From the NCBI GenBank assembly GCA_030704615.1, contig CM060731.1:38502001-38566000 (forward strand): a stretch of 64,000 nt of DNA, in the 5' to 3' direction. Below are positions 17,510 to 50,563 of this stretch, one piece after another. Within the stretch, counting starts at the first letter, position 1; each line of letters begins with the position of its first letter. The position numbers were made by a program, and so were the translations under genes. The notes beneath the pieces are model-generated. The model was not told the origin of the DNA. It ran no database searches and saw nothing but the letters and a program-made list of their open reading frames with translations. The stretch comes from Takakia lepidozioides. Taxonomy: Eukaryota; Plantae; Bryophyta.

Positions 17510-20500
17510 TATGAGCGTGTGAATTGTTGAACCTCCACTGGACAGTGGAGGTTACTGTCATAGGAATCTTGTATGGTTGTCATGATATGTGTCTGACGAC
17601 AGAGGTGGTTTGTTCTGTGGACAACAACATCACCCCAAGGGATTGTATTGTTGGAATGTGCAAACCTATCTGTGGTTCATTTGTTTCTCGAAAATCTCCG
17701 AATTTCAAGAATGATCACCTGGCAATTTTTGAACCCGGAGATCACAGAATGGGGCATTGTACCAGTTGGCACACCTCCGAACCATAAGTTCCGGTTCGAA
17801 TACAAGATTGGTGCAGAGGTCGCCGAGCTCAAATATGCAGATGTGGTCGACGTAGAGCTGGAGATGGATGTGGAATTTCCGATGTTGGTAATGTTCATGA
17901 TGGAAGATGGTAGATTTCCCAGAACGTTTGGCTTCAAACTGGAGGTACGAATTCTAAGGAAGGCCATGATGAGGGAGTCCATCACATATTGCGACGAGGG
18001 TACTCAATTTACAGATGAAGGTTTTTGCATGGCTTGGGGTATTTTCTTGGATGTGCTTTACTTAAAGGATAAGGAGATTGCAAAGACGCGGGAGGAGGAG
18101 GCTGCAAGAGCGAAGCCAAAGAAGGGAAAACGGAAATCCATTGACGCCGATGGTGATGACAATGAAGCCGGTACATCAGGAGGAAAGAAGAAACAAAAGG
18201 AGGAGATGGATCCTGCGTTCATGACAGATACCAAGAAACCCGAGGGCTGTAGACATATTCGACAAAGACAAGTGTGAGAAGATGCTGGAGAGGCTGGAGC
18301 AAGAATACAATGACATGTTTCTTTTTGGGTTTGAGGCAACCCAGGACGTCAAAGTTTCCATGATGGAGCTTGCTCCCAAGGATATGATGTACAGGCCCCT
18401 AAATGTGAAGCACAAAGACGAAGTCAAAGCGTGTCTTTACCGGCTCCGGGTGTTCGACTCCAAACATCCAGTTTATTTGATTCCCGCAAACCCCGAGAAG
18501 CCTATGGAGGTTTCTAGTTCGAAACCTCGAAACTGGAAGGAGGTGGAAAATTCCAGATTCTTCGTCATCGGTGGACAACACACGATCATTGCTGCTAAGG
18601 TGAATTTCCCGACAAAATCCAATTTTTATAACAGTGGAGGTTCATGAACTTTAAACAACATGCTTGTTAGGTCGATATCATTTTTGACCTTATTCAATTC
18701 TGTCGCAGGAACTTGTGCAAGACGTGGACGACGACAATCTTAAGAAGTACTACACTGACTGGCCCTCAAAGATTACATGGTCAAAGGATCTGATGAGGCT
18801 CGTGAAGCTATCTAAGCTCCTAAACAACCCGAATAAGGTGCAGAAATTTGACACAATATTTGCCGAGAAAATTGCACATGCCCAAAATTTCTTCGAGCTG
18901 AGGGGAGGCCAAAAAAGTACAACGATCACACAACGAAGTCGGAGACTAGACAATGGAAGGTAAATGATTCATTGTGTTTTCCGTTCCTTTTGCTAGAGAA
19001 CCAAAATATTTTCAAGCTCGGATTTAATGTGACGAACGGAGACCGCATTACGAAGCAGGAGACACTACAAAAATAGCTTCATAAGGGAGGGTGCTACAAT
19101 GAACGAGCGGGATGGTTCAGCATTCGGAAATTCGACATGATGGGGTATTTTGTAATGTGTCTTGTTTGGTAATGAGGTGCTTGTCCAGCTCTTATTTTCC
19201 CAATCTATTTATGTTCTCCACCTGTAACAGTTCCGCAAATGTGCCGCAAAAATACTTGAAACATCATATGAACATGAAAACGTGATGTTGCGGAGAACGC
19301 TTCCAAAACTTTTCATGCTCATTGGGTTTTTCAAGGATTTTCTAGGTACATTCCTGGAACTGTTCCTGGTGGAGAACATGAACAGATTGGACAAATTTGA
19401 CTTGGAGAGATGAATTGACAATCGAATCATCACTTGGTGTATAGTATAATTGACATGATAGTTGTGACTATTGTTTTATCTAAAAAATTAATATCAAATA
19501 TCGAATGAAATGTCTAACTTTGGCCCTGATAATTTTCGTAGGAATTTATGCAAGCATGTCAACTCATATTGGAGATGAGTAGCGTGAAGGAGGCCATGGT
19601 TCTGGTTCTCTGTGACGAAGACGTATGAAACCTATGGGAGGAGGTTTTCAAACAGTGGGAACAAGGGAAGCTTATTGATATTTTCGGGATTCAGTGCAAG
19701 GGTGAACAGCTACCGCTAAATAAAACCGCTATCGCGAAACTGCAAGGACTTAATAGCAGGTAGTTGAAAAGAGTGGCGGAGAAAATCCTAAACAGAGACA
19801 TTTGCATTCGGGGAACGAAATTCAAGGGCGAGGACAAATCCAAAAACACAATGGGCGCGTATATTGACCAAATAAAATTGCGACAGTTTATTATCGACGA
19901 TGTAATGGAAGTCTTAGGGTGGCTTCGGAGGAGCAAACATAACCCGGAACCGTATACTAAATAGAAGTGGCGTGATGTTAAAAAAAAATACAACTTCAAC
20001 AAAGCTGAGTTTGAAACATTTCGAGATAGGCTCGGGAACGACTACATTGTTAGCAAACAGAAGATGAATATGGAGACGCAGCCAATGACTGCTGCCTTCA
20101 AGAAGTATGTCTTGTCATGCAAGCAGACCTTCGAGGATAACCAGAACGCCCTGGCGATTCTACGCACGAGCTTCAGGTCCCATTACACACAGCTGGGGGG
20201 GAACCAGAAATTTGTTGATGCCAGATCACGGTTGGGACTTGCACCAAAGAATCGGTTCGACGACATATCCATGGTGTTCGTCAATACAGTTTGTGATGAT
20301 GACTCTGTTATCTTCGAGGCAAAGGACTACTCAAATATCCTGGATGCTTTTGTGGCTCGGAAGCTCATGTCCAGTGCTTTTGTGTTTTTCTCGACACAAG
20401 AATCATCGGGAAATCTTGTGTCATACATCCGGAATGGCCCTGGATCAAAATCGTTTATTATCCGACAGGGTTATTACATTCTCGGCGAGTTTGAATCACC

Positions 20501-20604
20501 TTACAAGAGCTGGACGACTATTTTCTCCCGGACGGTCCTCTGCCTCGACTACGTATTTCCGCCAACAACTGAGGAGATGGTGAATCCGGACGACCACATT
20601 CAAA
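17510..20604 (+). pseudogene. Multi-exon ParB/Srx-like domain gene (copy 1), disrupted and 3'-truncated
   Basis: YRPLNVKHKDEV..HPVYLIP..FFVIGGQHTIIAAK (18282-18600) fits the ParB/Srx nucleotide-binding strand-loop. Further coding segments at 17648-18277, 18715-18960, 19230-19430 and 19560-20600 with splice-like junctions and stops. Confidence 0.6.
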
Positions 20605-20929
20605 CTGTACCATCTCGGTAGGCAGAGAGACCGTCAAAGGAAGTGCACTCCGCACTCTACGTTGCTCAGCCATAGCCAAACTGATAATCCAGGTCAAGCA
20701 ATTGAGATCCATTGCTTGCCCCAACACCTGACGACGTGATGCCTCAGAAAGAGAAGGCACCGCCGTGGTCCCAGTGGAAAATCCCATAGCCCGCTCTCGC
20801 TCGTCAGCATTAGGCTCCACTAACTGTTGCAACTGAGCATCCCACAGGAGGCCAGGTCCACCATCCCGAAAAGCATGGGATCCTGGGAAGCTGAGCAGTG
20901 TAGGTAATGCTGCTCGTGGTTGACCCACC
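20605..20929 (-). repeat. 325-bp fragment of the Gypsy DNMT C-terminus (paralog of 11782-12106)
   Basis: Colinear, ungapped, highly similar DNA encoding GQPRAALPTLLSFPGSHAF...ERERAMGF...RRQVLGQAMD. Confidence 0.92.
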
Positions 20930-21168
20930 CTGAAAAAAACCATCTCATACCAAACTTGCACCTGATGTGGCAGTAGGCTTAGGTGGCTCTTTTGACGGAT
21001 ATTTTGACGGTCATTTTGACTGGTTAGTTCAACTACTATTTTGACTAAGTAATCTTAATGGTCTTTCTACGGTACTTATTACACCTCGGCGCCACCATGT
21101 TTGCCACATGTATGTCAAAGGGAATGCCACGTAATAGAGTCCATCAGAATTATTAAATAAATAATAGA
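20930..21168 (-). mobile_element. Possible Helitron-like 5' terminus
   Basis: The minus strand reads A|TCTATTATTTATTTAAT...ACGTGGC, with TTTTGACGG repeats. No matching 3' CTRR end was identified. Confidence 0.3.
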
Positions 21169-21764
21169 TATTAAGGGCTCTTCTTACGGACTCTCTCACA
21201 CAGATTTAACACCAAGTTCAAGTCGTGGTGTGATCGCAATGACACTAGTGTGAATACTGTCACATCCACTGTTTTGTTCCTATTGGATGAAAAGTAAACA
21301 ATTATTATTTGTTGACAAATGCCAAAATGAACAGTCATATTATCATTATTATTATTCTTATAATAAATGGGATAGCACCCCAAAAGCCATTGGCTGCTTG
21401 ATTTAATATGTAATATATTATTGTTTTAGAATTTTGATTTGATTTGTTTCATTTAAACAAAAGCTTATTTAAAACATGGATAATAATTGTATTATGAACC
21501 ACATTGACCAGTAGTAATGTTATTAATATTAAATATAGCAAACAACCAGCAAAATACCACATTCATGTCTACACAAGTTTAATTTGGCTTGATGTGGGAA
21601 AATGAAGTTGCCTTTGAACAAGGGGATCTTGTGATCATACATGAGAATAGCAAGAGCATCAATTCAAAAAATACTGTTCATGTCAGAAGAGCAGTTTTGT
21701 TCACCTGTCTTAGCAACCTTCAATCCATAAAGAAAACTAAACTAAACTTGTAGCATCTTCAATA

Positions 21765-24310
21765 TCACGCGTGTTTAATAAACTTTTCAGACCATAAGGT
21801 GGCACTTCCCTGCGTGTCACCCAATGTGGTATGATTAGGGGTAACAGAGTAGTCCGGGTACGGCAACACAACCTCTGAAATCATGACCGATTTCACATGG
21901 ATATGGTAATAGTTGTCTGGCACATTTGCTTTCGGAAATCCAGTAATATATCCCACACAACCTGTCTCTATACTCCATGCTGACATGATCAAAGGTGGAA
22001 CAGTGCCATACCTAGTTGATAGCAGGTTCTGCATGGTCAACATGGATGTGGTAGGACGATGTCACAAAACTACCTTTGTAGGTTGTCAATCCTGCAGCTA
22101 CACAGCGATACATAGGGGGTGTATTGATCCAGCATCAGACAAGGAAACAAAAGAGGACAAAGGAAGTACTTACACTGTGCGGATTTTGTTGGTCACCCCA
22201 TGGTTCAGTTACATCCACTGTGGTTGTAGTCTGATTGATAGCACATATTGTGCTTTCCCTGCCCATTGAACGCTTCACTGGTTTCACCATCTGCATATTG
22301 AATGACACATGATCAAAAAATGAGAATAGCACGAATGACACACATTGTGAAGTAGCATTAACAATACAAATCCACCCACGCGCCCAAGCATTGAATCTTT
22401 TGCTCTCACCTTTCTTTGATTATGCTTTGTTGTTGCATCGGGAGGCAAAGTCGTTGGAACTCTGGCAGCAGGAAGCCCTGGTTCGGATGCCTTTGCAGAT
22501 TGTTGTGATCCACTATCCATGGCTGCAGTATTGAACAAGTAGTTGGGCTGCCCATATCTGTATGGGTGCCCTGACACATACTCAGGGATGTGTGCAGCCT
22601 TGGATACACCCTCTAACCAAGGCAGTAATTCTTCATAAGCCTCTTGCAGTTTGGCTGATCCCTCAACTTCCATGGATACGGGAAGATGCAATTATTTGCA
22701 GGGTTGGGTAAGCAAGTGAGTGGGGAATCGTCCACCAGCAAAGTATTGGTTGGATTGTAATGGCTGTAGTCCTTCCAAAACTTACATAAGTTCTTGTACA
22801 TGACAGTTTTAGAAGGATTGAGAGGGTCCACCATTCCCACAGGTTGGTCACAATAGTCTTGGTGAAGCACCATCTTTGGTTGCTTCCCAGGAAACAATGC
22901 TTTCACAATTGGAAGGACATTACTCAATGACATGGAAGACCATACACCTACATCAAAAATCTGAAGGCATCGGTCCAGAAACTCCTGACACCCAGGTCTG
23001 GAGGTGACAGTGGGCTCTAGGTGTTCCCTTGTTCGTAGTCTGCTCTCACATAACAATCCATTCAAGTCAAGTATAAGGATGTGTTTCTGCCTCTCAGTTG
23101 CCGAAGGGCAATTACCAACAACTTGTACATGATTATCATGTACAAAAGACACACCTTTCTGTGGGGCACTCTGCAAATTCATGGAGACCTCACAGGCATA
23201 TTGAGAGGGTAGTACATATGCCGGGAGTGCTACTGGTGTAGGGGACAACAAAACGGATGAACACTTTGCAGTTGCCTCAACAATATGGGGGGATGGATTG
23301 AGTTCACCTTCAGACCAACCCTCCATGTCATCATCCCCCTCCATTTCTGAAAGCCCAAACAATGAGCCTATTGTGTTTGGCTTTGGTGGCGGTGAAGAAA
23401 CTGCCTTGAACAGGTTGAGTGGTGAGCCCATAACATGAGAAATAGTCTCATTTGTTGTGTGTGGCGCAAAGGTGGTGCATGGTGGACCTGTAGGTTCCGA
23501 ATCTGGCACATTCATGCCAAGTTTAGCTGCGAGCGCAATGTTGAATGCAGCTGAGGCTGGAATCCTGCAAGGTTTCAGCAGTACCATGCATGTTACCACC
23601 TTCACTCTGTTGGGGCTGGACTGCTGTCTCCCACCCCACAGGATGATGCGGAGCAAATGCATCCTCGGTCTGTTTCAGAATGCCTTTCCCTTTCAGGGTA
23701 TTAGGTGTACCTGGAGATGTTGGATAAAGAGGTGGCCGCGGTGCAGTGAAGCTCGAAGGTGCCAGCAGTTGTACTCCACTGTAGTTGGATCCTGAAGGTT
23801 GGTGGCCACCATACTGGACCTGCCCCTGGTGTGGTCTTGCAGGGCTGGTAGGATAGAGGGAGGAAGTAGGTTGGTTGTACATAGGCCAAGGAGGATACAT
23901 ACTATGGGGATGCATTCCATAATGGTGGTAAATGGAATACCCACCTTGACTAGGATCATGCATTGGAGCGCCTGCAGGTGGAGCAAAAGAATTGTAATTC
24001 TGGCACTGAGAATCATTGTTTGGAGGTTGATAGTGAGGATACGGCATGTGCCCATGCAGATTATACCCTGACATGGCAGGATACTGTGGGTACATAAGCG
24101 GATACGAGGGAGGAGCCGATACTGGTGGATACAAGGGAGCTGGAACATCAGTCTGTGGAGTGGGCGGGGCTGGTTTTTTGTAAGGGGGAACAACCGCGCC
24201 ACTCGTCACAGCAGTTGGCGCAATAGTTGGTGCACACTTTGCTGGAGTAAGAAACTTATGCTCGTTCGCATCCTTCCCTGCAATTCCCTTCCTTTTTTTT
24301 TACTAAACTC
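21765..24310 (-). pseudogene. Pro/Tyr-rich region + FCP1/NIF-type HAD domain + C-terminal Tnp1/En-Spm-like domain (HAD copy 1)
   Basis: KHILILDLNGLLC, SRPGCQEFLDRC, VGVWSS, YKNL, NTLLVDDSP, NP (22613-23100). The last exon VVLPYPD...TTLGDTQGSATLW resembles the Transposase_23/TnpA C-terminus. Confidence 0.7.
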
Positions 24311-24854
24311 TGCACACATTGCTCAACAGAAACATGTGAAACAATACGACCATACTACTAGGGATGGCAAACCACGTGGGTAAGCCAAGCCCAAAGGCCT
24401 ATGCAAGAAGACCCTGTCAGTCAGACCTATGGTACAGTCAGCTGAATCGCATGCCTCATACCAGCGACCCTATGATAAATACCTGAATATTAGGAAGGAA
24501 GAACTCATCCTGCTAGATGAATCTGACGTGGAGGCTGAAGTGTCTAAGGCCATGTCAAAAGCATGAAGAATGTCCGAACAAAACAATATTAGGCATAAAC
24601 TTCCCTGAACTCATTTCCAGTTTGTGACATGGGTGAGGACTTTGAGGATGATCTGAAGGGCAGACCTACCCTTGGCACTAGACTGAAAATTTAACCTCCG
24701 GATGGGGAGTCTACCTTGAACAATAAACAGATGCAGAGAGGAAAGGGAGATTGTCGATGCTCACTGGTGTGGGTGGCCTGAAGACAATGTCCATTTTGTG
24801 ATACAAGTCTGGGGTATTCTCATCAGAGAGCGACCCTCTTCAGGACCATCAAGA

Positions 24855-25050
24855 ACATAGTCCCTACACCTCTGTTCACCAACTGTCAATATCTCAAGGC
24901 TGAGTCTAAAGCGGTGGGCCCTGTTGGGGCTCATTGCTTGGTAGCCCACATACAACAAAACTGATGAACGTGTGAAGGGCTTTCTAAAAGGAATCTGGAA
25001 AGCCTGAACTAATGTTTATAACATGGTAAGTCCTACTAATGGAGTGAGCC
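24855..25050. repeat. Dispersed repeat, copy 2; related to 3440-3630
   Basis: Shares the blocks listed for copy 1. Confidence 0.7.
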
Positions 25051-25082
25051 CCTCATTCTAATGGCAGACAGTTAATTAACTG

Positions 25083-25640
25083 TCTAGAAGATCTTCAGCT
25101 TTTCACCTTGAATATCAGGACAAGAGGTGACCAAGTGCAGTGGACTCGTGAGAAATCCCAAACTGGGGAACGCTCCATTGTGGATTATATCATAATGGAC
25201 AAAAATTTGTTCCCCCAGTGTGCGAATGTGTTGATCGACAGAACTGATATTGCTACCTCTGACCAGTTCCTGGTTTGGAATGAGATCAAAAGGTGTTTTC
25301 CCAACACCAAGAGATATGTGAAACATTCGATTCGGAAGTGGCGCATAGAAAAACTTCATAATGAGGAGGTCAAGGTTGAGTATGTCCAGGCCTTGCAAGA
25401 GGCTCTCCCTCTCAATGCAATCGCTCCAAGAACTTCAGTCTCGCTCTGATAACGCAAGAAATGAAGTCGAAAGAGCAGGGGACTCTTGGGAGAGTTTCGT
25501 TTCCTCCGTGGTTGACAAGATCATTGGGATGAAACTAATTGTCTGTGCTAGAGCTGTTAATTGGTGGACCAATGAGATTAAACTCAAGATAGCTGAGAGA
25601 CGAGCCCTCTATAAAGAGTGTTGCAATTTCGCCGGACCCA
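25083..25640 (+). mobile_element. LINE ORF2 fragment (end of AP endonuclease plus linker)
   Basis: QWTR..RSIVDYIIM..IATSDQFLVW (SDH-type motif), then WWTNEIKLKIAERRALY; frameshifted and truncated. Confidence 0.75.
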
Positions 25641-28493
25641 ATTAATCCCGTTATCCAAGAACCAGATGTAGACCCGACCTCGTAGGAGAAGGAGTGCCGG
25701 ACTTACAATCATGAGCTGAGGCCAGACATCTACGATTACCTGGTTTTTTTATTTTTGCAGCGACGGAATGTCTTGTGTGAACATTTTTGGAGGACTGGCA
25801 ATGACATACATTCTGCTTGTAAGTGGATTCTGCATCTTGGAATTGTCTGTGTTTTCAGTTCTCCCGGATTTAACTCTCGTATTATTGACGTTGTCGGAAT
25901 AGCGTGTTTAACCCGTGTCTGATTGTTTCCATTTTGTTAACCTCCGCTGGGCAATGGAGGTTCATGTTATTGGAGTTGTGGGTGTTTTGGGTGTTTGTTA
26001 TTCTGCAATTTGGTGTGTTTGGTAGTTGTCTCAAAAGAAAGCCTAACCATTTCAATCTTTCGATGGTTGGTGTTCGTCGGATTTATTTTGATATCATTGT
26101 TTGGTTTCATTACAGGAAATAAATATTCGTGTGCTCGACATAACTTTGTAACGAAAAAGAAATTTTGTAGAAGCAAGGTGGAGGCCTATTTCAGGACCCT
26201 CCAGATTGACAATCAGACTATTGCAGGAGACAGAGATTACGGAGACTCATTGCAGGATGACGAAGTGGATGAAGAAGATGATGACAAAGGACACGACAAG
26301 GATCAGGATGAGGAAATGGAGGAGAAACAAGAAGAGGACGACGAGGAGGAGAAAGACGAAGATGAGAACATGGAAATCGTCAACGGAGTCCAGGGGCAGA
26401 TACGGCTAATGTGGAAAAGGGAAAGAGAGGGCTAGGAAATTTCACGGTTGGATAATCTAGGTAGTACTCCAAATACCCAAGAACGCGTTGCGCCACAAGA
26501 TGTACACAATCTGGACAACTCTTCCTCCAGTTCCGATAACACCACGAATAGGAATCCGGCTTCTCCAGGGGGACAAGAAGCGACATCGAGGGAGGTAGTT
26601 GAAACTCTCGGTCAAGGGTTCACACATGTGGAAGGTGACGAACCATTGATTATGTCACCGGATCCCGTTAACAATCGTCGTGATTTGGTGTCCCAGAATG
26701 TCACCCAGGAAGTGGTTCTGGATGTAGGTAACAAATGACAATTAGTGAATGTTTATTCGTACACACTTCTGAATACAATATGACAATATTGTAATTATAC
26801 ATACTTGTGAGTGGAATAATCCAACTGTTTTTTCCATATGACAATATTGTAATTATATATAATCCCAATGTTTTTCCCATATCCGTCTTTCTGGACTTCC
26901 GAATAAAACATATTTCCACCCGGATACATATTTCTGTTCGCACATCTTTGTGGACAACCACTAACCGATTTGGGATAACTTTTCTTGTAGATCCAAGAAT
27001 CCAATTCGGAGGAAATGACACACACAAGAAAAGGATCAAAGGAGACTCAAACGGTGAAGAGACACGTGGATCTGACAGTGAGAGCCAGGTCACCTGAGCC
27101 GGTTCCGCAAGTAACCTTCCACTGTCCAGTCGACGTTGCCATCAAGGGACGCAGGGATTGAGTCGGAGAATCCTCCTAGTCACGGAGAAGGAGAAGAGAC
27201 AGAGCACCACAATCGCGTAATCCAACAACAGATCCCCATTCGGATAAAACATTGGCTTTATTCTTATTACTCTTATTATTGGTCTTTCAGTCTCATCTTC
27301 GGTATTGCTCCATTCGGTAATTTTGTCAGATCATTTTGGACCACCATAGTCGTCATCCGTGGGATTTTTCATTAATTTCCTGTAGATTCGTGAGACGACG
27401 TCTGAGGAGATCAAACACACGAGGACCGACTCCATCGACACTGAGACGGTGAAGAGAAGAGTGGATCGAACAATTACTGTCGCTCTATCTGAGCCGGTCA
27501 TACAAGTAACCTCCACTGGACAGTCGAGGTTGCCATCTGGCTCCACAGAGAAGGACAATAACGTTGGACGTAGAGATGGGAAAGAGGAGGAGCAGCACTA
27601 GTACAGAAACTGGTTTTTTTAACGGCTCTTCTCACACATTTTGGTGTGAAAAAAACGCAAGTTCACACCCCCCCCTTGGTGTTAGGTTAACCTAGTCCTT
27701 TGCACCACATGTGAACTTTCTTGGTCATGTCAATAGAGAATTGTGGGCGAGGTACTACCAGCTCCGTAAAGATATCAATCAGCTTGTTAGGTCTCAGAAC
27801 CCTAAATTATACTGGGACAAGTTATATAGTGTTTGAAACTCGGAACTTTGGTGCAGATCGCAAACCTGCTGATGGGTTGGGGAGTTTGCAGGGTGCTTTG
27901 CGCGCTTTTTCTTTTGTTGGGCTTCTTTCATCGTTTCCATCTCTGACTCCGAGCTGGTCTCATTCAAGTCTTCATGTGCGGCATAATCTTGGTCTCGCTG
28001 CAATTCTTGCTCTCGTGCCTCCTCTGTGTCTGACTCCGCTACCACCTGCGCTCCTCTTGCTCTACCTCTTTCTCCGTTGTGACATTGCAGAGTGCAGGAG
28101 TTGAACTCTATGACTTCGGCGAGGAGGACCTGTGTGTTTGAGGATTTCCTCAACGAGGCGTTTAGGGCGACTCAATCTCGCTTCAACGCTGCAAAGAAGA
28201 AGAAGAAAGACAATGTCGGCAGCAGCAAAACCCTAACATATCCTCTTTGCAGGTTGGAGCTTTTATGCGGTTGGAGCTTTTATGCGGTTCATGGTAGGGG
28301 CTAGGTATATGAAAAAACGCAAGTTCGGACCTCTTTGCAATGTCGTAGATCTTCAGTCGTGCGAAGAATGCCTTGTTCTCCGCTTGACGCTTTGCTCGTT
28401 CTACCTCCCTCGCTGTAGGCTTGCGCCCTGGTGTAACTTCTGGACACTCTATGTCTGTCTCCATTTCCTGACGAGTCTCACTCAGTCGCCAAG

Positions 28494-31400: not shown

Positions 31401-32278
31401 CCCGCACTGAGTTCAGAACAGCATACCTTTGTGGACAAGACCAAGACCACCACAATGGAGAAATTCCATACCCAACAGATATGCGCTTACTGGCTCCATT
31501 CCATGAATGGATTGAAGGTGCTGTCCAACGCAAGGTGAGTTCAGGTGAGTCCTATGATTTGGACATATGCCATTTATGTATACCACCAGCAGTACAGTCA
31601 TTGGGCTTCAAGTCCATGTATGCTTACGGCAATCACTTTCGAGCAATAAGTGATGGGACTGGTGCCAGAGACAGGGTGACATTTGATTCTGGAGTTGCTC
31701 AAGTATTCCATCAGGAAAGCGAAAACAGAGCAGGTATGTCCAGACGAGTGTTATCCCAATTGGAATATGTGGGTGTTGTAAGAGAAATAATTCAACTGGA
31801 TTACGAAATTCTTCACCCAATTATGTTCTTGTGTACATGGGTGAGGTCACACATGGTGGGCCGGAATGCCACCATGAAATGAGATGATTATGGCTTTCTC
31901 TTGGTTGACTTCAGTCGCATGTTGCCTGGGATGGAGCAGCCCTGGACATTCCCTAGTCAGGTGGAGCAAGTTTTTTTCTCGGATGAAAAAAGTTCACGAG
32001 GGAACTGGAAGGTGGTCCTTCACAAGGACCCTCGATCCCGACGAGTGGTTCACAATATTACAGAAGTGGCACTGGGTGAGGGAGACATTTATGTAGGCAT
32101 GGTGCCTCCTGAAATTCCTCATAACATCATGACTGAGCTTGATGTTTGTGTTCCTTTGAGTGAGGCAGATGAATTGGCCATTGCCAACTTGAATGCACCT
32201 GCAAGGCAGAGGCGAAATGGTAGAAGGCGGAGGCAAGCTCCACATGGGAGGTACCAAGCCAGTTGTGCTATGGTGTAG
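28494..32278 (+). pseudogene. CACTA TnpD-like transposase (Transpos_assoc, Transposase_21, DUF4218, DUF4216), frameshifted
   Basis: ILCPCNAC; IHACPKGCVLF..CPKC; RHPTDSKAWAHID; PRNLRLGLAWDGVNP; WPVMLVNYNLPPW; WSIHDFPAYG..CPAC; LDMMHCEKN; FFDIMTHLLVHL; FPSQVEQVFF. Confidence 0.92.
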
Positions 32279-39100: not shown

Positions 39101-41803
39101 GTCGTCAACGCCATTCAAGGACATTATCAATTCTAATCAGGGACAATATAATTGCACCCTTAGATCCTAACCAGGTGAATTCATATACTCGCTTAAGAAT
39201 GACTCAGACAAAGAAGTGAATGTCGTCAACGACATTCAATCTGGATCTAAGATTGCAATCCATATGAAGCCACAATTTTTCCCAAAAAAACAGTAGAGTT
39301 TCAAGTATGACATTTCACCTGTACACAACTCGCATCATGGCCCACTCTCCTCCAACCTGACTGTCAAAGTCGTTGGACCGTAAAATGTTACCATCTTTGG
39401 AGAACTCCCGGAAAAAACAGTATCTCCAGGTGAGACCTCTCCACTTCCTTATGTATGCCTCCAATGACATTTGGGGAGGGGAAACAATCGCAATGTTCAG
39501 GTCCTTCAAAGTCTGATCCAGCACAATGACGGCGCGCTTTTCGAGCTGCAAATAATATATTTGTCAGAATTGCAAAAAAGAAACACATCACATACTTGAA
39601 GAGAAGAAACAGCATGTTCGAATACACACCTGACTCCAAAATGTAGCCTTGTGGAGCCAGTTATCAAACACCAAATCACTGATTCCTTCCACCTTTGTGC
39701 CAGGCTGTATGGTGCTCTTTGGGAACTGATTCAAGTCCTTTACTGTTTGATCTGAGTTCCATATCTCCAGCCACCTTATTTTTGTTTGTGGGTCGACCAT
39801 CGATATGGCCAGCCGGTGCAATTTCTCCTGCTGCATCTCCGGATGCACATGCTTGTCATAGTGTGTTTTGATCTGCTGAAGGAACTCAGGACCAAGTCCA
39901 GGATCTACTATTCTAAGCTGCTTTCCGAAGGCTGACATCAATTTGGTTCTTCGCATCTCAAACTCCTTCTTTATTGCAGCTTCCACACCCTTTGATGTCC
40001 TTAGTTCCGCTGGTGTAGTGCGGTAATATTCGGATTTTCCCTTCTCAGCTGCCTCTGCCAGTTCTTGCTGCATTCATTCAAGTAGTGATTAGCTCCGAAG
40101 GGACTCTAAACATGTATTCGAAAAGTAAACAGATTACAGACTCGGGCTTACCGCATACATGTACTCCAGAAACGCCTCTCGTGTCAAAGAATACCAAGTG
40201 CCTGCAGCTCTTCCTGTTTCGCACTTCTTGATGATATTGGGTGGTAGTACTGTCCGAAAATCATCCAGCTTCATCAGACCAATCCTCTGAATTCGGAATA
40301 GTGTGTGAACCAAGCTTGTTGTCACATGCGATTTCTCTGTCGATCTGCAAAAACATTGAAAACATTGCATTCCTTAACACTGTTTTTTGAGGATCAACAA
40401 GACACTACAGAGGGAATCAAATCTCCTGGATGACTTACTTGTTCACGTCGTGCATAGCTGTAAGAAGCCTAGCGATGTCGTTTCCTGGATCCAAAACCAT
40501 TGCCTCCACAGCAACATGCTTGTCTTTGTCTTTCGAATGGTGTTTCTGAATGTATCCCATCCATGCCAGCAATCGGTGGTTGCCGTCCCAGACGTAGAAC
40601 ATGTGGTTGCAAAATTGCTGGGTGTTCTTTCCCATCATGAGGCCCAGCTCGAACTCCTCATTGGCATCTTTCCAGCACTCATCCCAGTTATCACTGATCT
40701 CTGGAGAAACTAATGTGCTTTTCCCATTTATATCCGTCAGTGACACATAAAAAACTTGTGCACCAAGTCTATATCCATGCACAAAATCACTCTCCAATTT
40801 TGTTATGTCATGGGAAAGAGGTGGACGCACAACAGGCATTGATATCATCCGGCACAGAGGTATGTCCAGACGCCCTCCAGATACGAGCATGTCCCTTATA
40901 ACCTCCTGAGAGTTTACCTTCTGGAATGACATGAGTTCTTTCACCTTGTCAAGGTAGTGCACTTCGGATTCATCTGCTTCATCTGTATTCTCTGAGCTTT
41001 TTGCGGACTCGTCCCCATCTCCAGATCCTTTCCCCTCTGATCCTGTAGGCTTCGACCTCACAGTTTTCTGCACGATGCCATTCAGTTCTGACTAAGTGAT
41101 TTGCAAATAGTGAATGGCGGTAACGACAATCACTCTGTATCAAGGAAACTCACCATGAATGGTGTGAATTCAGCACAATCTACACATGCAAAGCCGAGAC
41201 TGCCGTATTCAAAACAAAAGTGAGAGCGATAGCGAACGGCGTTAACGACAATCACAAAAGATAACAACCTGCCGGATCGGTGTTGTGTAATGACATATAT
41301 GTGCAACTGATTGGCGGCAACGACATTCAGTGTAGTTTAGGGAGAATAGTAAGTGCAGACTCTCTCTTCAAACACATAGGTACATAAATCTCATGAGCAG
41401 AATCGAATGGCGTTAACGACGCTCGCGATTCAGTAGTTCCTGCTAAAGAATGGAAGAGGAAGGACTCCTTGAAAGGCAATCACACAGACTATATGATAAA
41501 ACTTACTGGCACCTTCTTAGGTTTTGAAATTTGATCCCCTTTTGCAGCTTTCCTCTTCCCTCTCACATCTGCTGGAGTTTCTGTCTGCGCAAGGGTTTCT
41601 TGACCTTCTTCAGGTTCGGCGTTCCGCGTGCTTCCACCTTCTTCAGTGTCCCTGCGATTCATCTCTGCCTCCACAGGCTGGCGCACTCTTATCGCCGACT
41701 GTGTCGCAGCCGCTGCCTCAGTCTCCGTCTGCTCTTGTGAATCAGTCTCCGCGTTCACCTGCTGCCTTGGCCCTGTGTTCTCCAACAAACGACGCCTCGT
41801 CAT
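36174..41803 (-). CDS. ParB/Srx domain fused to a beta-class N4/N6 DNA methyltransferase-like domain (about 10 exons, a few frameshifts)
   Basis: Approximate exons 41803-41510, 41090-40439, 40344-40152, 40105-39630, 39545-39319, 38373-37722, 37608-37272, 37075-36792, 36696-36511, 36420-36174. ParB: VRPPLSHDITKLESDF..FYVWDGNHRLLAW. MTase: ADIVILDIPDG (DPPY position), FLSDAGTLLLF, EKSPAFMQILLESCS..RVVDLSVSTG|ATYHACKAGGRSLFGME (motifs X-I-II as in N6_N4_Mtase). Confidence 0.78.
38515..39238. repeat. Intronic array of 7 x 22-bp palindromes TGAATG(T/G)CGT-CA-ACG(A/C)CATTCA
   Basis: Copies start at 38515, 38621, 38782, 38890, 38985 (degenerate), 39096 and 39217; spacers 73-139 bp. Confidence 0.92.
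41111..41425. repeat. Second intronic cluster, 4 variant copies of the same 22-bp palindrome
   Basis: 41111 TGAATGGCGGTAACGACAATCA; 41233 CGAACGGCGTTAACGACAATCA; 41308 TGATTGGCGGCAACGACATTCA; 41404 CGAATGGCGTTAACGACGCTCG. Confidence 0.8.
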
Positions 41804-42658
41804 TTTCTCTCTTGCTCTGCGTCTCTCTCTAAGGGAAGTAAAATAAAGAGACTTTCTTCTCTTTCGTATTCTAGAAGGAACCCTCTCCAGCTTGACTACC
41901 ACTCTCCCTCTAAGCGCGAAAAGTAGAAAAACGCAGTGACTCTCGATTTCTTGCGGGATTGCCTGTGTTCTTGCGTGTCTCTAGAAGCATCGGATTCCCT
42001 CCCGCGTGACCGTTACACATAGTCGTTTCGTTATTAGTGCACATGCCAGCAATTGGTGTACAGCTGTTCGTATTCAGTTATGGATGTCTGACGTGTGCCG
42101 CCCAAAACAAAACGGCGTGTTCTAAATTATAACTGGTTCAATATTTAAAAAGAACAGCGAATCCCAGAAATTGATGCGCAGTCTTAAACAAATAAATATA
42201 AATGAACGAGAGTTTGATGACAAATTTTGGAATATCATACACGGTCATCCTTGTTATCCAAACCCCACATTCGTTGCACATTTGGAACTTTCCAGGTGCG
42301 CATGATCATTGGTAGTAGTATATAGATACATTTACTTAATCTGCAATCCCATTCTCGGATCCTGTGGCATGCTTCCAGGAAGTCGGCTTTGTTATTGGGT
42401 TTATTGATGAGGTTCTGATTAACGGTTTAACAGTTGCCGACACTGCCCCTATGGATTCTCTGACCACTGGGCCCACAAGAAAAGTAATTAAAATGGACGG
42501 CTGCATATCTGGAATGAATAACAGAATATGCACAGTCGTTATCTGAGCTTCCTCCGCCATATGCTCTGCTCATTCTTCAACTGTGTTCTGGAGACAGCAG
42601 TAAACCGATTTACACTAGATCTGCGATAGCAAGGTACAAACATACTCGAGGAAGGAAG

Positions 42659-45600
42659 ATGGCTTCCTCTGAAGCGGAGTTCTTCTCAGACGACAAACCA
42701 GTGCCGTTCTCCCAGGAAGTCCTTGACAATGGATTTGCAATTGTTCTGGAACATGTCTTGGCTACCCGTTTTCAGCTGCAGAATGGCTCCATCTTTTTGG
42801 AGAAAGAGGTTTACGATCTGAAAGGGAAGTTGGTGAAATATTCTTTCCAAAACCGTGATGAGACGGCTCATATCAGCCAGTGGAGAGTGCGTCCTGGTCG
42901 ATACAGAGTACTTGGAGAGCCTCGGCGAAAGTCCCTTGGGTCATATGTGACGCCCGGGACTGCTGCTTCGGTCGTTGAAGACAAGAGGGAGGTGGTGGTG
43001 AAAAAAGAACAGACTTCCTCCACTCCAATCGTTGAGCTTTCGGATTCTTCCGATGATGACATAAGTGAAATTCCAAATCCAGTCCTTCCTACTGTGGTTG
43101 CAGAAGCTGATGAAGAAGAGATTTGTAGTGTCATTCCAAAATTGCGGGCGATGGGAGGAATGGCTGGATTCAAAAGTGAGTTGCGGGGAATTGATTGGGA
43201 ATCTTTGAAGCAGGTGCCTGTGAAGTTCTTGCCGGAGACTTTTGATGGCGATATCCTATTCGAGCTGCCTCCTCCTCCGCGAGTTGGAGGTGTAACAATC
43301 ATGATGCATGGAATGGACAAGAAACACGACGGGCACCCGTGGTGCAGAACAAAAACATCCAATATTCAGAATGATGACAAGCTTGTTTTCAGGAGGACAG
43401 TTTGCAATGGACACCTTAGGTGTGATAATTTGAATTGCAGACACTTTCTTCAGTCTGGAGTTCATAATCAAAGCGAATGGAAGGGTCTGGCGGAGAATCC
43501 ATTTCAGCCTGGGACTGCCCCTCCACCGGCAAACACTTTCGTCTGCAAATTCTGCAAACTTGTGCCATCCTGCTTGGCGCTCTGCGGAGCAAGAATGTAC
43601 TATGTTGTCCACCGTTTGAATACAATGACGAGAGCTTGTGTGCATTTTGGATTCCATAACCATCCTGTCTCGAAGGGGGATTACAGGGAGAGTGTTGAGA
43701 CAGTATCGAGGTTGATCAAACAGGAGTTCGGGAGAAACCCATCCGCAACAATATCTGCAATTGCTCTTGGCGCAAGCAAGTCATTCTTGGAAAGCCATAT
43801 TTTGAGTGAAGGAGATTCTGTGGGGACTAAACTTGACGGTGCAGCATTGGACCTGGTCATGGATCATTTCTCCACTTTAAGTTCACCTAACATTCGGCAT
43901 CAGATCAATGCATTGAGAATGGGCTCTGGGATCAGAGGCTACATAGACAATATTTTGGAATTGAAACGACTGAGCAAGTACGATTACATCCAGGACAATG
44001 TATTCCCAGGTCAAGGTGCCATCAAAGTTTTTCTTTTCAAAATGTCGACTGTTGGGGAGGGCAGTGGGGTTAGCCTCGTGAAGCGGATGCAAAAGACTGG
44101 GGACTTGCAGAACTGTTTTCTTATGTTTGATCATGTGAAACGAGTGAAGGATTGGACGACAATGGCTTGTCATGTCTACGATCCAGTGTACCAACGAGTT
44201 ATGACAATTGCAGTTTGTGACATGCAATCCGAGGATACGGAATCCCAGAAGCTCATGTGGAATTCCCTGATACGTGTCATGGGCTGCCATGGGCTGCCAT
44301 CTCCAAATTTCGCAGGTTTCATGGCGGATAGTGCTCAAGCAAATTTCAATGCTATTCGTATTGTCTTCGGATCGGGCGACCCAAAAGTGCCTATGCCAGG
44401 AAGAGAGCGTACATGTCTATTCCATTGGACACAATCTCTGGAAAAACATACAAAGTCGGACATCAAACCAGAGATGCAGACTCAGCACCGTAAATTGTGC
44501 AAAGAGTACAAAGATGCTAGAACAATGAAGGAGGCGGACACTTTGTTCCAGACAATTCGTGCCTGGTGGTTCTCTTCTGGAGCTGCATCACTTGAGAGTA
44601 TGAGAGCATTGGAAGATTGGCTGGCGTTTTGGCACTTCCGGTATAGACAGTGGGGAGCAGCCATGACAATGGTACGAGGCTTCTATTTCATGCTTTATTC
44701 ATACATTTGCTTTCCATATTTTTGACTCATTGCTTTCTTTATGTTGTTTCCTGTGCACTATTCTGAAGTGTGGTTATCCTCTTTGCAGAACATGTCCATT
44801 GAGGAAATGGCAGACATGCCATCTTGCAATTTGGCAGAAACTGTGCACAATGCATGGTTGCAGCAGTCTGGGAAACGAGGTCGGGATTTGTATGTGGCAA
44901 CAACAGATGATTTGATACGTGCCTTGCAACAACAAACCCGATACCGTGATTTCTTACGAGGTGGGGTTGGTGGCAAGGGTCCGGACAAATCGGAGTTGAT
45001 GTTGCGTGCTGCAAACAGATCTGGGGATCCAATCAAGATAGCACGGGCGGTGAGCATGTATGCCCAGGGAACGCCACTTGTTTCTAGAGTTCCACATCTT
45101 GAAGGGGAGGAGAGATTCGGCTCCTGTAAGAGGAAATTGAACACTCCACCTGGTTCGGATTCAGATTCCCACAGGGCAGACCGTGATAACTTCTCGAAGC
45201 CTCGTGTTCCCCTGCATGACAGCTCCGTGTCCGGAACCTCCATTGTGGAGGAACCTCCAACACGACGGCAAGCTCCAGCATCAAACCGTGCCACTGAAAT
45301 GGTGCAGGAGAGAAACAACCCCCTTGATGTGCTTGAGTCCGCATGCCCCGACCACGTTTGGCACATAGAACGCACAAGTGTCGGGTCTCGTGTGAAATGT
45401 ACAGCGATCAGGGCAACTAATTTCGAGAAGTGCACTTCATCTATATCCAGAGGTGGTGCCCGAACTCCTGCTCCGACTTTCACGGGCTTGATGCGTCCAT
45501 ACGGTCAACCAGAAGCCAAGAACCACAAGTTCTGGTTCTGCGCAGATGATTGTGCCAGATGTGTGCATGGAACTGTGCGTCCTTCCGTAGTGATGAAGCC

Positions 45601-46173
45601 ATCTCCTCCAACCGTTTGGCCCGTGAAGGTGGGAACACATCTCAGCTTTCAGGAGATTGAAATGCTGGAGGAGGCAGGTTTTTCCCTTGCGAGACAACCC
45701 CAACTCCATGCATGTGCTACTACTCCTGCGTCCTCCCGGGTCCCCCCGACAAATCTGACTTGTGGCCAACCAAACGAGATGGAAAGCTCGTTCGGCGTTT
45801 CCCTCCAACCGCTGAACACTTTGGCAAAGTGGAGTCCGCAAGAATGCTCCAAGCTCGTGTCGGAAGCACCACGGAAGTACCCGATCCAGGATATGGTCGG
45901 GTATTCACAATCATCACTTCCACATCTGCTGTTCATGACAGGACCTACGACATCATGGTTTCCAATTTCCCCAATTGCACATGTCCTGATTTTGTGAATA
46001 TGCTATCAACCAGTTTGGGCAAGAGAGGTAAATTCATACCCTGCAAACATTTGTATTTTATATTTTTGAGGAGGATGGTTTGCGATCCCAAACGTGACAA
46101 CTTCATTCACCAGGCCACTATGAGTTTCAACGAGGTCGATACTCTTTTGCAGCGGGATACAACACATGGGTAG
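42659..46173 (+). CDS. Mutator/MULE-like transposase: GCM/WRKY-like Zn domain, DDE core, SWIM finger
   Basis: Exon 42659-44671, intron 44672-44788, exon from 44789, frameshift near 45750. DGHPW..CNGHLRC..C..CKFC..C..HFGFHNHP; FDHVKR (D1); FMADSAQ (D2); TCLFHW (CxxH); NLAETVH (E); CTCPDF..PCKH (SWIM). Confidence 0.82.
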
Positions 46174-48949
46174 CATGAACTATGTAATGTGGTATGTGGA
46201 TGACCATGATTTGAAATGTGTAATTCACATCAATTCGTCGGCTGTGCAATGATATGGCCTCCAACTATACGGAGTGAGGTCTGAGTGACAACTTTTAGGT
46301 AGTGCACATTTGTCATTGCACCGTTCGAAGTCTACATGTCTTGCTGTCGCTATGCACTACAATCATCTTTTGAAGATGATCATAACTCTCATTGTTATTT
46401 GAGGAGGGAGGAAGTCTTCTCGTGGCAGCCTTTATGGCGCACACTTTGTGAGGATATTTTGTCGTCTTCGTAATTGTAAAAGTGAAACAAACATTTGTAA
46501 TTGCACAATGTTGGATGCTGCAATTGTAGGCCTCAACGCTCATCTTGATTCTATTTAGGCAAGATTCCCTGCATTAATTCCACGGTCATAGGACCATCCA
46601 CGGTTATAGGCGGCGCATGTTAATGCTGACGTGGCAGTTGACGGACAGTGCCACGTCATCATTTACCGCCACATTAGCATGCTGACATGACGCTCACGCC
46701 ACGTCAGCATGTGTGCAGGCTCACGCCACGTCAGCTGGCGTGAGCGTACGCTCACGCCACGTCACTCCTGCGTGAGCGTACGCTCGCGCGCTCACGTGCA
46801 ACGCTCACGCCATTGCGTCGTTGCCAGAAGAGCTACAATGTCCCCCGGTTTTCAGAATCGGACTACAGAATTCTAGCTCTTGTCAGATTCCGACTTGTCT
46901 TTAGACGGGAGAAATATAGCGAAGTGTGGACAGAGTTGCACAAACACTACCGGTTAGGGATTTGGAGCTCTATGATGTACAAGAACTTGCAGCCCATTTT
47001 GGATTTTTTGCTTCGTGGTCTACCTCAACCGGCCTTCGTTATGTCTCAAGAGGATTGTATTTCATGCCCTACTTCGGTTCACCCTCAATTCAAATCAGGA
47101 TTGGACCCTCCTCATTTGTTTTTGAAGCCACTGGTCAAGGTCTGGAAGGGATTTGGTGGGCAATACACGAAGAGTAACACTCTGCTCATTGACGACACCG
47201 CCATGAAGTGTGTATTGAACCCGCCCGACTCATGTCTTGTTCTCAAACCGTTCCAGACCGTTGAGACTGATGGTTGCTATCTTCTCAAGGTTCTTCAGAC
47301 CTATTTGCTTGGAATGAGGAAACATCCTACTGTTTCAAGCTATCTTAGGAAAAAAATGATAGGGTTGAGTTTTTTTCCCAATGTTTTAAACGATCCCAAG
47401 TTTAGCCCACTCTGGGATTTTATTGAGGACAACGGTTTTAAGAGTCTCAGATATGATGCTTCAAAATAAATTATTTTTTATCAATCCCATCTCACTCGAA
47501 CTATTGAATATCTTCATGGTTTCTCTTTTTCATTTCCTTGTAATCACACACGTGAAAGATATGGTATGCTCATTTTGACTCATTTTCAGTTGAATTCTTG
47601 ACGCACATTCCGGGCAATCCCAAGACTCTGATACAGGCCTTCATACGGGGACATGACTATATCTAGTGACCTCCACTGTTCAGTGGAGGTTCACATTTTT
47701 GCATTCCTGGATTTATGATTATGTCTCTTTGGCAAGTTCAAGGAGATGCTGACAACGTCATCTGTTCCTCAAGTCCCCTAAAGGAACCCTCCGGATCAGC
47801 TGTGAGTTGGAGTATTGAAGGCTTTCCGAGAATTCACGATGGATCCTCTGTCAGACCCTTGTCCTCCCGAGAAGCGGGCGACACTCTTCTCCTCTTCGGG
47901 TCCTCCTGGGGGTAAAGTCCAAGGTGCAGGTCAAGAACACAAATATCCCGGAGACTTTATCGACCTTTCCCAACATTCCTCACCCTCCCTATTCAGTACG
48001 CAGGGTCTGGTTTATCCAACCCGCAGGGCAACCGTTGGGGACTCGGCTACGGCTCCGCTGCACCTGCTTCCGTCTCTTCCTCGCACAGCACGAGGGTTGG
48101 ATAGCCCAAATCCGTAGGAGTCAGGTGACTTAAACTCATTTCTCGCTCCTTGCTTATTCTCCTAGTTTTACTTAGTTTGGGGTCTGATATTCATCTGTCG
48201 CTCCAGGTAAGAAAATTTGCAGATTATGACCTTCCTGTCAAACGACGTCTGCATTGGAATGCAGTTCCGAGGTAAATTATTCCTTCGTTGCGTTTTCATT
48301 CCATCCAGGATGTCGAGTGCTCAAGGGACAATTTTCTGTGCTTGCCTGTTGTTGCCCCTCCACTTCTCTCGTCGTTCAATGGCAAAACATCTCCAACATC
48401 GACACATCGTGACCCTGAACTGCTCGCACAATGTTATGCACCAAAGAGGCAAAAAAGAGCCCTCGAGCCATTTCCTTCCTCTGCAGGGAATCATTCCAAA
48501 TGACAAAAGGCTGACAAGAAAAAAAGAGCGGACTCCAAACACTTGAGGACTCCCTCGGATGTTGTGGCGCCTCGTCAATCCAAGCCCGCGGGAATCCACT
48601 GTTCTTCTGCAAGACATTCCAATAAGGCTTCAATGGTACATTTCAAAACAATTTCTCTACTTTCGTTTGCAGTTTATTTTTCTGTCCCAAACTAACTCCG
48701 TAATTTTTATACAAGCGAGTAAGGAGCCGCATAACTTCTTGAATGCGCCTCCCGACAAGGTGCGTTCACTAACCTCCACTTGACAGCCGACGTTCATCTT
48801 TTCGTGATCTCGAACTCTTCGATATATGGTCTATTCTTGGTCCTTTACAGTAGTCCATTGTCGGGACACTTATGTTTCCGAAAACGTAGAGGTCATTCTA
48901 AAACTAAGAAACACTTGTTTTTGACGGCATGAACACTTAAATTGCGCAG

Positions 48950-49690
48950 GATGGTATCGTCCATCAACCTTCATTTGCCACATCGGGGAAGAGGAAACGG
49001 ATGCTGTTAATATTGAGTGTCAACGGTCTCTTTTGCTACCGGCCACCTCCAACCGGCGGTGAATTGTTTAAGGAGAAATTTTGTTTCAGGAAAGTTACAG
49101 TTCATGTTCCCGAAAGACCTTTTGTGGTTCCCCGGCCTGGAGTCTTGAAGTTTCTCAACCTTGCGTTCATGCATTTTCACGTGACAATCTGGTCATGTGC
49201 TGAAAGACATGTTCTTTGTAGGATGCTCGAGTGCTTAGTTCCTACGAAAATTGCGAAGAAGTTTTGCTTCATCTGGTCAGCTGAGGATTGCAAAGACACT
49301 ACTGGTTACATCATGCCTGGGATGAAATATCTCGTTAAGGATATTCGCACTGTTCTTGCCAAGTACCCTGGTACACCCTTTGCAACGCAGGGACAAATAC
49401 TCCTTGTTGATGATGAGCCATCAAAGGGCCTCCGAAACCCACCAAATATTGGATTCTTCCCTATTCATACAAGCCATCACCAAAAGGATTGGTTGACTAG
49501 GATGATATGACAAAAGCTGTGTGGCCATATATATTGAAAATGACAACAGTTGTAGATTACATCAGCGAGAACCCTGCCAAGTGTTCTCGTAAGCCTATTG
49601 GTCGTGACCATGCCTATTGGGCTTGGTATGGAAGATATGTTGATCCTCGTGTTTGGATCCCACAACAAAAGGAACCTGATTACCTTGGTA
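48950..49690 (+). pseudogene. NIF-type HAD domain (copy 4)
   Basis: Exon after AG at 48949: MLLILSVNGLFC, PRPGVLKFL, VTIWS, WSAEDC, LVKDI, ILLVDDEP..RNP; frameshift near 49460-49510. Confidence 0.75.
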
Positions 49691-50563
49691 TGTACTTATC
49701 CCACTGTTTGTTGTTTATGGAGAATTTGATCTTGAAAGTGTCTTCCACTTGCACTTTTACTTTATCATTTTTTCTACAAATGTTCCACATTTCAGCTGAC
49801 ATTTGTCATATGAAAAATTGTTTTGCCCAGTCACATTCAAGGAGCGAATTCGAAAAGAAGAAGAAGAGCTTCGTGATTGGCAAGAATGGCGGGCTTCCCG
49901 GCGGGCTTCCCGGGCATCAAGAGATTCAACAAGTAGAGTTCCAAGTAACATTTCGGATGATAATGTTACTACTAGGTTCGAGTTCTCCGAAAGTATTTCC
50001 GTTTCATCTGGTGTGGAGACCGTTGCAAGTGGTTGTGGTAACCGGAGGCGTCTTCGAACACATGCCTTGACTGCGAGCCGTTTGGGAGGAGGCTATGTAA
50101 TATTAATGGGTTAGTGTAAGCCGTTGTATGGCTTCGAGCCGCTGGATAACATTAAGTCCAACGGATGTACAGTTGACGTTACATTATGTCTGACTGCAAC
50201 GCCAAAGTTGCAATCTCTAATAAAATATGAATGTTTATCAATGTATGCCGACACATTCTTTCATATCATCCTCTTCATCACATGCCATGATTGTTCTATG
50301 TTTGGTTTTGTATGTCATCTGATATGACAACCATTTTTTGCAAAAAGTTTTATATATCTGACCTCACATCATGGTGTAATTTATTGCATCCTCCCATTTT
50401 TTTCGTGAACGTCAACTTGGCATTGGATGTTCTTCTAAAACCACAATACATACTTATATTGTCTCCAAAAAATGTTTGGAGGATTATATTGTATATAAAA
50501 TAATCAAAATAATCATATATATCGCTTTATTTCAATAATAAATTTTGTTTATTCATATTTCTC

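Follow-up and report, generated by a model that had tools for sequence, protein, structure and literature searches.

Anatomy of a nested locus

We analysed a window of 64,000 nucleotides of the Takakia lepidozioides genome (contig CM060731.1, positions 38,502,001 to 38,566,000), within which all coordinates below are counted. It is an intron-rich piece of eukaryotic DNA, in which Pfam recognizes alpha-tubulin, PPR fragments, and CACTA and Gypsy domains. The subject of this study is an island of repeated DNA at 17100-50700 (plus strand), hereafter the outer element, which carries a gene for a ParB-like protein, genes of the NIF family and a dispersed 24-bp palindrome. Its native DNA lies in four segments (17100-20608, 25630-27595, 34353-35484 and 46833 to about 50700) between nested insertions. 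The native genes, all on the plus strand, encode in this order a peptide resembling the C-terminal domain (CTD) of RNA polymerase II, ParB-1, NIF-1, NIF-2 and NIF-3.

ParB-1 (17597-25830, plus strand) is an intron-containing pseudogene of the IGGQH type, with frameshifts and stops. Its ParB domain is encoded by exons 18225-18599 and 18709-18900, and its tail (25630-25830) is found past a composite insert of 5,021 bp (20609-25629), made up of a Gypsy fragment, a CACTA-like subterminal motif, a fourth NIF gene and a fragment of a long interspersed nuclear element (LINE). A CACTA element follows (27596-34349, plus strand; Transposase_21 domain, CACTA...TAGTG ends, CAG target duplication), then NIF-1, a gene of the HAD fold whose domain exons span 34353-35273 on the plus strand. 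NIF-2 (35382-47469, plus strand) is split into 35382-35484 and 46833-47469 by an inner Mutator-like element, and the domain exon of NIF-3 occupies 48941-49700, also on the plus strand. All these genes score over the cut-off of the Pfam NIF family, with E values of 2e-5, 1.6e-7 and 8.6e-9 for the outer genes and 1.1e-15 for the gene in the insert.

The catalytic motif of NIF/FCP1-type HAD phosphatases is DxDxT. It is absent here: all four NIF genes lack the second aspartate of motif I (LDIGYL in NIF-1, FDVNGVL in NIF-2, LSVNGLF in NIF-3, LDLNGLL in the fourth gene), and NIF-3 lacks the first as well. The outer genes are predicted to encode pseudo-phosphatases. NIF genes are not exclusive to the outer element, since the fourth (22616-23674, minus strand) lies in the 5-kb insert, so that two or more repeat families of the genome carry such genes. 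The same insert contains a Pro/Tyr-rich frame (23523-24299) and has about twice the depth of the outer element. The open frame at 17103-17297 (plus strand) encodes a peptide with a tyrosine every 5 to 11 residues and five Ser-Pro pairs, without a family match, which we take to resemble the heptads of the polymerase II CTD. It adjoins the 5' side of ParB-1, in an element with three genes of NIF, a CTD-phosphatase family; a module combining a CTD mimic with pseudo-phosphatases is possible on these sequence features.

The sequence-only reading of this locus had tied the ParB-1 and NIF/HAD regions into one putative giant mobile unit. To follow these segments, read contigs were used from sets X2 and X3, which come from the same sample, and X5, from another study. 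Contigs joining 20608 to 25630 are present in X3 (depth 768), X2 (depth 382) and X5 (depth 10); other copies therefore lack the 5-kb insert, and in them ParB-1 resumes at 25630. Removal of the nested insertions in silico, part of the check proposed with that reading, restored open frames across the CACTA and inner elements: excision of the former via its target duplication yields a stop-free exon, in which palindrome site 27508 is situated, and excision of the latter via its target site duplication (TSD) makes the NIF-2 frame continuous. In X3, contigs of the single-copy flanks have a depth of 38 to 44, against 839 and 1023 for ParB-1 and 1020 for NIF-1. The flank contigs do not differ from the window, and the assembly may therefore have been made from the X3 sample. 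We estimate the outer family at roughly 20-25 copies, contig depth being a rough figure for copy number and a use against which the tool cautions. In X5, the nine outer pieces shown, from 17771 to 49681, have depths of 7.7 to 12.3; the 5-kb insert has 14 to 17, three pieces of the inner element 86 to 152, and a fourth, divergent inner piece 5.5. The ratio of observed to expected CpG is 0.81 (0.74-0.88) in native outer DNA, and 0.74 to 0.91 for its segments taken unmasked, compared with 0.62 in the inner element and 0.37 to 0.51 in the CACTA, the Gypsy, the insert, the LINE and the host flanks.

Because of the junction contig, the restored frames, the equal depth and the common CpG signature, we assign the four outer segments to one repeat family and read them as a single, truncated copy of an element that is repeated in the genome and measures at least 10.5 kb. 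The proposal that ParB-1 belongs with the NIF/HAD genes in one repeated unit is thus supported. The term giant is not supported: 23.1 kb of the 33.6-kb span are later insertions, native DNA amounts to about 10.5 kb, and the left part is missing. On the right, the element ends at about 50660-50790, and a single-copy contig begins at 50794. On the left, it stops mid-exon at about 17100, where it abuts a Gypsy element devoid of its 5' long terminal repeat (LTR), and a deletion has therefore likely removed its left part. Two matches between a repeat farther left and the right end (8-bp direct, 7482/50804; 12-bp inverted, 7598/50598-50609) were considered as element ends and rejected as being at chance level. 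Near the right edge, two 52-bp tandem units, 96% alike, are found at 50559-50662. At 19042-19407, contigs return 366 bases at full family depth (X3, 1023), and other copies therefore have a tandem duplication at this place; the 366-base unit includes an intronic inverted repeat of 97 bp.

The inner element (35485-46823; 11,339 bp) has short imperfect terminal inverted repeats (TIRs) and is flanked by copies of the 9-bp TSD CCAGAAGAG at 35476-35484 and 46824-46832, a length that fits the 8 to 11 bp duplicated by Mutator-like elements (PMC6446971). It carries ParB-2 (about 36500-41800, minus strand), of the DGNHR type and with a methyltransferase-like tail, as well as a SWIM-bearing, transposase-like gene on the plus strand (42518-46173). 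The latter likely encodes a DDE transposase, judging from DDE and CxxH motifs read by eye; its SWIM match (E 0.0025) is under the cut-off, and neither a Pfam MULE match nor a PDB sequence match was found for it.

The outer element is likely a DNA transposon too. Alternatively, it may be a segmentally amplified gene cluster, or the cargo of some other, larger unit (a tyrosine-recombinase element, for instance), and its ends would then lie beyond our view. Such an origin would agree with the blank searches for a transposase, TIRs and a TSD, and with the resemblance of a ParB-1 exon to DUF3723, which ranks eighth for this exon in the Atlas with a score of 0.92 (164 of 256 features), a family for which the exon gave no Pfam match. 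Yet the right edge passes sharply into single-copy DNA, there are about 20-25 copies, and the other ParB-bearing element of the window is Mutator-like and flanked by a TSD; we give this scenario little credence.

Two palindromes, each confined to one element

Palindrome A, AACCTCCACTG-NN-CAGTGGAGGTT, is 24 bp long, with long arms and a 2-bp spacer. The sequence-only reading had described it as perfect at 17530-17553 and near perfect at 27508 and 47668, and the counts agree: the first site, in an AT-rich predicted intron 5' of the first long ParB-1 exon, is exact, while 27508-27531, in the open predicted exon 5' of the NIF-1 domain, and 47668-47691, some 200 bp past the stop of NIF-2, have one mismatch each. 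The more degenerate copies on its list were all recovered. They comprise a 25-mer with a 1-base insertion in its left arm (27113-27137, in a duplicated predicted coding exon), two sites with four mismatches (35282-35305, 9 bp after the NIF-1 stop, and 48771-48794, in the predicted intron preceding the NIF-3 domain exon) and one with five (50408-50431, 3' of NIF-3). A further site with two mismatches, at 25939-25962 and 3' of the ParB-1 tail, had been overlooked. In addition, the intron of ParB-1 at 18600-18708 contains a half-site, namely a perfect right arm (18631-18642). From 18633, an X2 contig (depth 264) runs on into a full palindrome A, and an X5 contig spanning 18245-18838 has 20 gap letters, so that the site at 18631 is likely full in other copies. 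The outer-element family therefore likely has nine A sites, including a full one at 18631 elsewhere.

Matches with at most three mismatches number four in the window (17530, 25939, 27508 and 47668) and zero in 100 shuffles. With a symmetric position weight matrix (PWM), the eight A sites score 16 to 39 bits when each is left out in turn, and no other position in the 64 kb exceeds 10.7. All eight fall in the 10.5 kb or so of native outer-element DNA; the scan of the 64 kb placed none in the host flanks, the Gypsy, the CACTA, the 5-kb insert or the inner element, which bears out the earlier impression that the palindrome was missing from the host genes and the other mobile elements. Sites 27113 and 27508 are parts of an internal duplication (71% identity over 164 bp), and seven sites are therefore counted as independent; the chance that all seven would be found in outer-element DNA is about 3e-6 (post hoc). 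Once the inserts are removed and the half-site is included, successive distances are 1090, 2298, 1174, 395, 1018, 1038, 1103 and 1637 bp. This spacing of about 1.1 kb has a coefficient of variation of 0.42 (P = 0.014 against uniform placement, again post hoc).

Palindrome B, TGAATGTCGT-NN-ACGACATTCA, has 22 bp and also a 2-bp spacer. Its 11 sites (38515-41425) are distributed over two predicted introns of ParB-2, with seven at 38515-39238 and four at 41111-41425. The PWM scan placed all 11 inside the inner element, and both its TIRs and its transposase gene are free of them; neither matrix scores the sites of the other palindrome. The two palindromes are thus alike in geometry and unlike in sequence, and the suggestion that each ParB-bearing element has a palindrome of its own agrees with their mutually exclusive distribution (8/8 and 11/11) for two elements in one window. 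That the outer segments represent one element family with a private site seems to us highly probable.

The question arises as to what palindrome A is. It could be the site of a host transcription factor or chromatin protein which the element exploits, and the location of three sites after gene ends and of three others in predicted introns would suit such a role. However, 22 informative bases are long for a plant factor, the approximately 21 kb of host flanks contain no site, and the nested element has an unrelated site with the same geometry. A host factor is, in our opinion, a quite improbable reader.

The sites could also be RNA or DNA hairpins, involved in 3' processing, splicing or cruciforms, or else neutral footprints of a tiny repeat. 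The two best sites do fold as DNA, with about -10 kcal/mol, and the pair 27113/27508 arose by local duplication. Against hairpins, none of 16 deviations in the A arms is compensated in the opposite arm, and on this count the hairpin model was rejected; site 48771 gives no fold, and 27113, 35282 and 50408 scarcely fold. Against footprints, the flanks of the sites are alike in only a few bases and have no TSD, the duplicated pair excepted. Hairpins and footprints together are left with a small probability. As none of the 16 deviations is compensated and folding is weak or absent in four of the eight full sites, we regard the dyad as a double-stranded recognition sequence. C/G variants recur at positions 4 and 7 of the A arm, and in the B arms 2 of 19 deviations are compensated.

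ParB-like proteins and a proposed self-marking

A HMMER scan with the ParB-1 exon returned 24 relatives (E at most 0.001) among 1.84 billion proteins. The ten that were looked up are all unnamed or hypothetical, none of the 24 has a significant Pfam family, and Pfam ParB_N was not hit. Comparison with these relatives indicates that the second ParB-1 exon extends the same domain. For the homologue P0014 (E 5e-5 against the exon), a structure was modelled on a 24-row alignment that included both window exons, with a predicted local distance difference test (pLDDT) score of 80.3. This model matches Noc (Foldseek E 8e-4) and the ParB structure 7bnk (Z 10.7, root-mean-square deviation 2.1 over 91 residues); sulfiredoxin scores lower, with a Z of about 7. 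The ParB-1 family is thus modelled with the fold of the ParB/Noc N-domain. At the characteristic motif, ParB-1 has GGQHT, and its homologues have GGQH or NGQH followed by T, S, I or M. ParB-2, with DGNHR, differs in subfamily, and it gave no match with the ParB-1 family profile or with local ParB profiles.

The spliced tail of ParB-2 scores 11 bits, in two colinear segments, against a profile of beta-class methyltransferases (32 bacterial sequences), and shuffled queries score at most 1.5 bits (300 made per query, 152 to 181 reported). It contains DIPD in place of the expected DPPY or TSPPY. By these sequence comparisons, a methyltransferase-like domain appears detectable in ParB-2, and at motif level only in ParB-1. 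Pfam, PHROGs and PDB sequence searches with the C-terminal modifier domain of the ParB-like proteins were blank, and an Atlas feature search with the ParB-1 tail gave nothing relevant.

Since no candidate family other than the ParB-like one is shared by the two elements, we favour a ParB-like protein as the reader of the palindromes. Palindrome A would be the loading site of the outer element's own protein (putative binding), a homodimer of which would read the two 11-bp arms. From sites about 1.1 kb apart, a ParB-type clamp could load along the whole element; the protein would then spread and mark the element DNA, and the C-terminal methyltransferase-like domain, or recruited host factors, would alter the chromatin, probably so as to resist host silencing. 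Protein and site may diverge together, so as to give each family a private address and leave other families unmobilised. The B sites lie within the introns of ParB-2 itself. The outer transposase is predicted to have stood left of 17100 and to have pointed away from ParB-1, the arrangement seen in the inner element; a deletion would have taken it together with the 5' LTR of the Gypsy. The NIF pseudo-phosphatases might, speculatively, act on CTD signalling of polymerase II. The CpG signature fits anti-silencing and is no proof of it. Taken as a whole, this mechanism of self-marking through a private palindrome has, in our estimate, even chances of being right. A broader version, in which land-plant transposons use a ParB/parS-style address code, with each family's clamp loading at a private palindrome about every kilobase, spreading along its element to keep this free of CG methylation, and with a NIF/CTD-mimic cassette that manipulates RNA polymerase II, is rather doubtful.

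Palindrome A may instead be recognized by the transposase that is missing, or by some other protein that the element has lost, the sites serving transpososome assembly or self-activation and the ParB-like gene being separate cargo. Transposase sites usually cluster near element ends, unlike the dispersed sites described here, and the location of all 11 B sites in ParB-2 introns, away from the TIRs and the transposase gene, also speaks against this scenario. In its favour, the left part of the outer element is gone, no DNA-reading domain was found in ParB-1, and a Mutator transposase is described as activating cognate copies sequence-specifically (10.64898/2026.08.24.746577, preprint). We tend to consider it unlikely.

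Several observations weigh against self-marking by ParB-like proteins, or against the unity of the element that would mark itself. As to the proteins, the ParB fold was modelled on the homologue P0014, not on the window protein, and neither a helix-turn-helix nor any other domain for reading DNA was identified in ParB-1, whose central exons are decayed. CTP-binding ParBs have an arginine-rich GxxR motif with an Arg pair; the GGQHT of ParB-1 lacks this pair, and the classic motif of the CTPase clamp is absent. ParB-2 is considered ParB-like from motif resemblance and a layout read by eye, and its single-sequence model has a pLDDT of 34.5. The tail of ParB-1 has no score against the methyltransferase profile and no detectable similarity to that of ParB-2. 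As to the sites, two A sites fall within predicted coding exons, the fourth NIF gene occurs without any A site, and the comparison of private palindromes concerns two elements within a single 64-kb window. High CpG ratios are also seen close to the starts of host genes and, at 1.04, in a repeat without sites (7543-8650), and the ratio of the outer element may reflect its origin rather than protection. As to unity, no contig runs through the whole outer element, linkage being direct only across the first insert, and the empty site of the inner element was absent among 15 of 389 joints. Neither a TIR nor a TSD was detected for the left-truncated outer element when three candidate left zones were compared with the right end, and no transposase was found in those zones or in 63 further frames. 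This last blank is weak, since Pfam also missed the core of the inner transposase.

Known systems and neighbouring sequence

ParB-like accessory genes on large eukaryotic transposons, those of algae, are already known (10.1101/2025.02.11.637652, PMC12477816). PAG3, a gene with a ParB-like N-domain that accompanies Plavaka transposons of red algae (Bostrychia) and Chondrus Mutator transposons, has adjacent inverted repeats; its best HHpred match is 7BNR, and self-binding has been put forward as a hypothesis (10.1101/2025.02.11.637652). The window shares with it the ParB-like N-domain (its family matching 7bnk/7bnr), inverted repeats within or beside the gene (A in and around ParB-1, B in the ParB-2 introns) and the idea of self-binding. 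PAG3 differs by a 2OG-oxygenase tail and tandem arrays, whereas in the window, which belongs to a land plant, single sites are dispersed over four genes at distances of about 1.1 kb, NIF genes are present, and each of two nested families has a site of its own. Sola1-1_Ec32 of Ectocarpus encodes an accessory protein with a ParB-like domain and an N4C/N6A methyltransferase domain, for which self-binding was also proposed (PMC12477816). As in the inner element, the ParB-like N-domain and the amino-methyltransferase-like domain are encoded on the strand opposite to the transposase. However, this element is a Sola and not Mutator-like, and the string 'palindrom' does not occur in the main text of the paper; in the window, ParB-2 has DIPD and the methyltransferase-like tail of ParB-1 is putative.

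VANDAL elements of Arabidopsis are Mutator-like. They carry an accessory protein, and their introns and other non-coding DNA contain motifs that differ from family to family; their VANC proteins were shown experimentally to relieve the silencing of their own copies (PMC5735166). VANC motifs are, by contrast, non-palindromic, of 8 to 9 bp, dense and in tandem (PMC5735166), and the window differs by its dyads of 22 to 24 bp, its A sites about 1.1 kb apart and a ParB-fold protein for which anti-silencing would be an analogous role. Bacterial ParB/parS, Noc and VirB resemble the window in the fold of the ParB N-domain and in a palindromic site, and VirB, a ParB-family protein on a mobile element, acts as an anti-silencer without ParA (PMC10653881). 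In the window, by comparison, the gene is eukaryotic and intron-containing, the motif is GGQHT, the site is longer than the 16-bp parS, and neither a helix-turn-helix nor ParA was found, the latter among the window frames scanned, with the outer left part missing. DUF3723 is a family of auxiliary genes of Starships (PMC11162782). The ParB-1 exon resembles it at feature level, and in both cases an accessory gene sits on a large eukaryotic mobile element. The window, however, has no Pfam DUF3723, a plant host and a much smaller element, and the DUF3435 captain had no match among the window frames scanned, the outer 5' end being missing.

In the literature covered, with subscription papers mostly outside it, we found no land-plant element combining a ParB-like gene, a NIF cassette and dispersed long palindromes, nor a nested pair of families that differ in their sites. 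One genome here provides two ParB-like proteins and two long sites that exclude each other, a natural orthogonal test that bears on how a transposon confines recognition and un-silencing to copies of itself. If the mechanism is true, a ParB/parS-like system would be at work in a eukaryotic nucleus, and such elements would be a source of orthogonal protein-DNA pairs of 22 to 24 bp.

Beyond the window, palindrome A had no match in viral contigs, which also contained no related loci. In GTDB, the 24-bp degenerate pattern gave none and an 18-base pattern gave five, about chance level. A single match in a metagenome contig lies in an unrelated intron-rich gene, with no ParB or NIF by eye, and was taken as chance. 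Word-index protein searches found nothing, and PDB sequence searches and a phage tblastn gave nothing relevant.

The Gypsy to the left of the outer element (8660-17077, minus strand) is present in very high copy, and its protease and integrase regions are separated by a domain of the C5 cytosine methyltransferases (Pfam E 2.7e-8). A 328-bp piece of this element, which lacks its 5' LTR, recurs at 20605-20932. Next to it, 7543-8650 is a distinct repeat whose depth is moderate and which includes tandem units of 53 bp (7785-7997) and has the high CpG ratio given above; it could be the lost left end of the outer element or another element. A motif at 8620-8655 resembles the TIR of the inner element. 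Fragments of PPR genes (32821-33378, plus strand; weak Pfam matches) were captured in the CACTA. Finally, a LINE-like 3' fragment without a Pfam match (57900-58900, minus strand) lies in an intron of the right-hand host gene, presumably an aldehyde dehydrogenase as read by eye.

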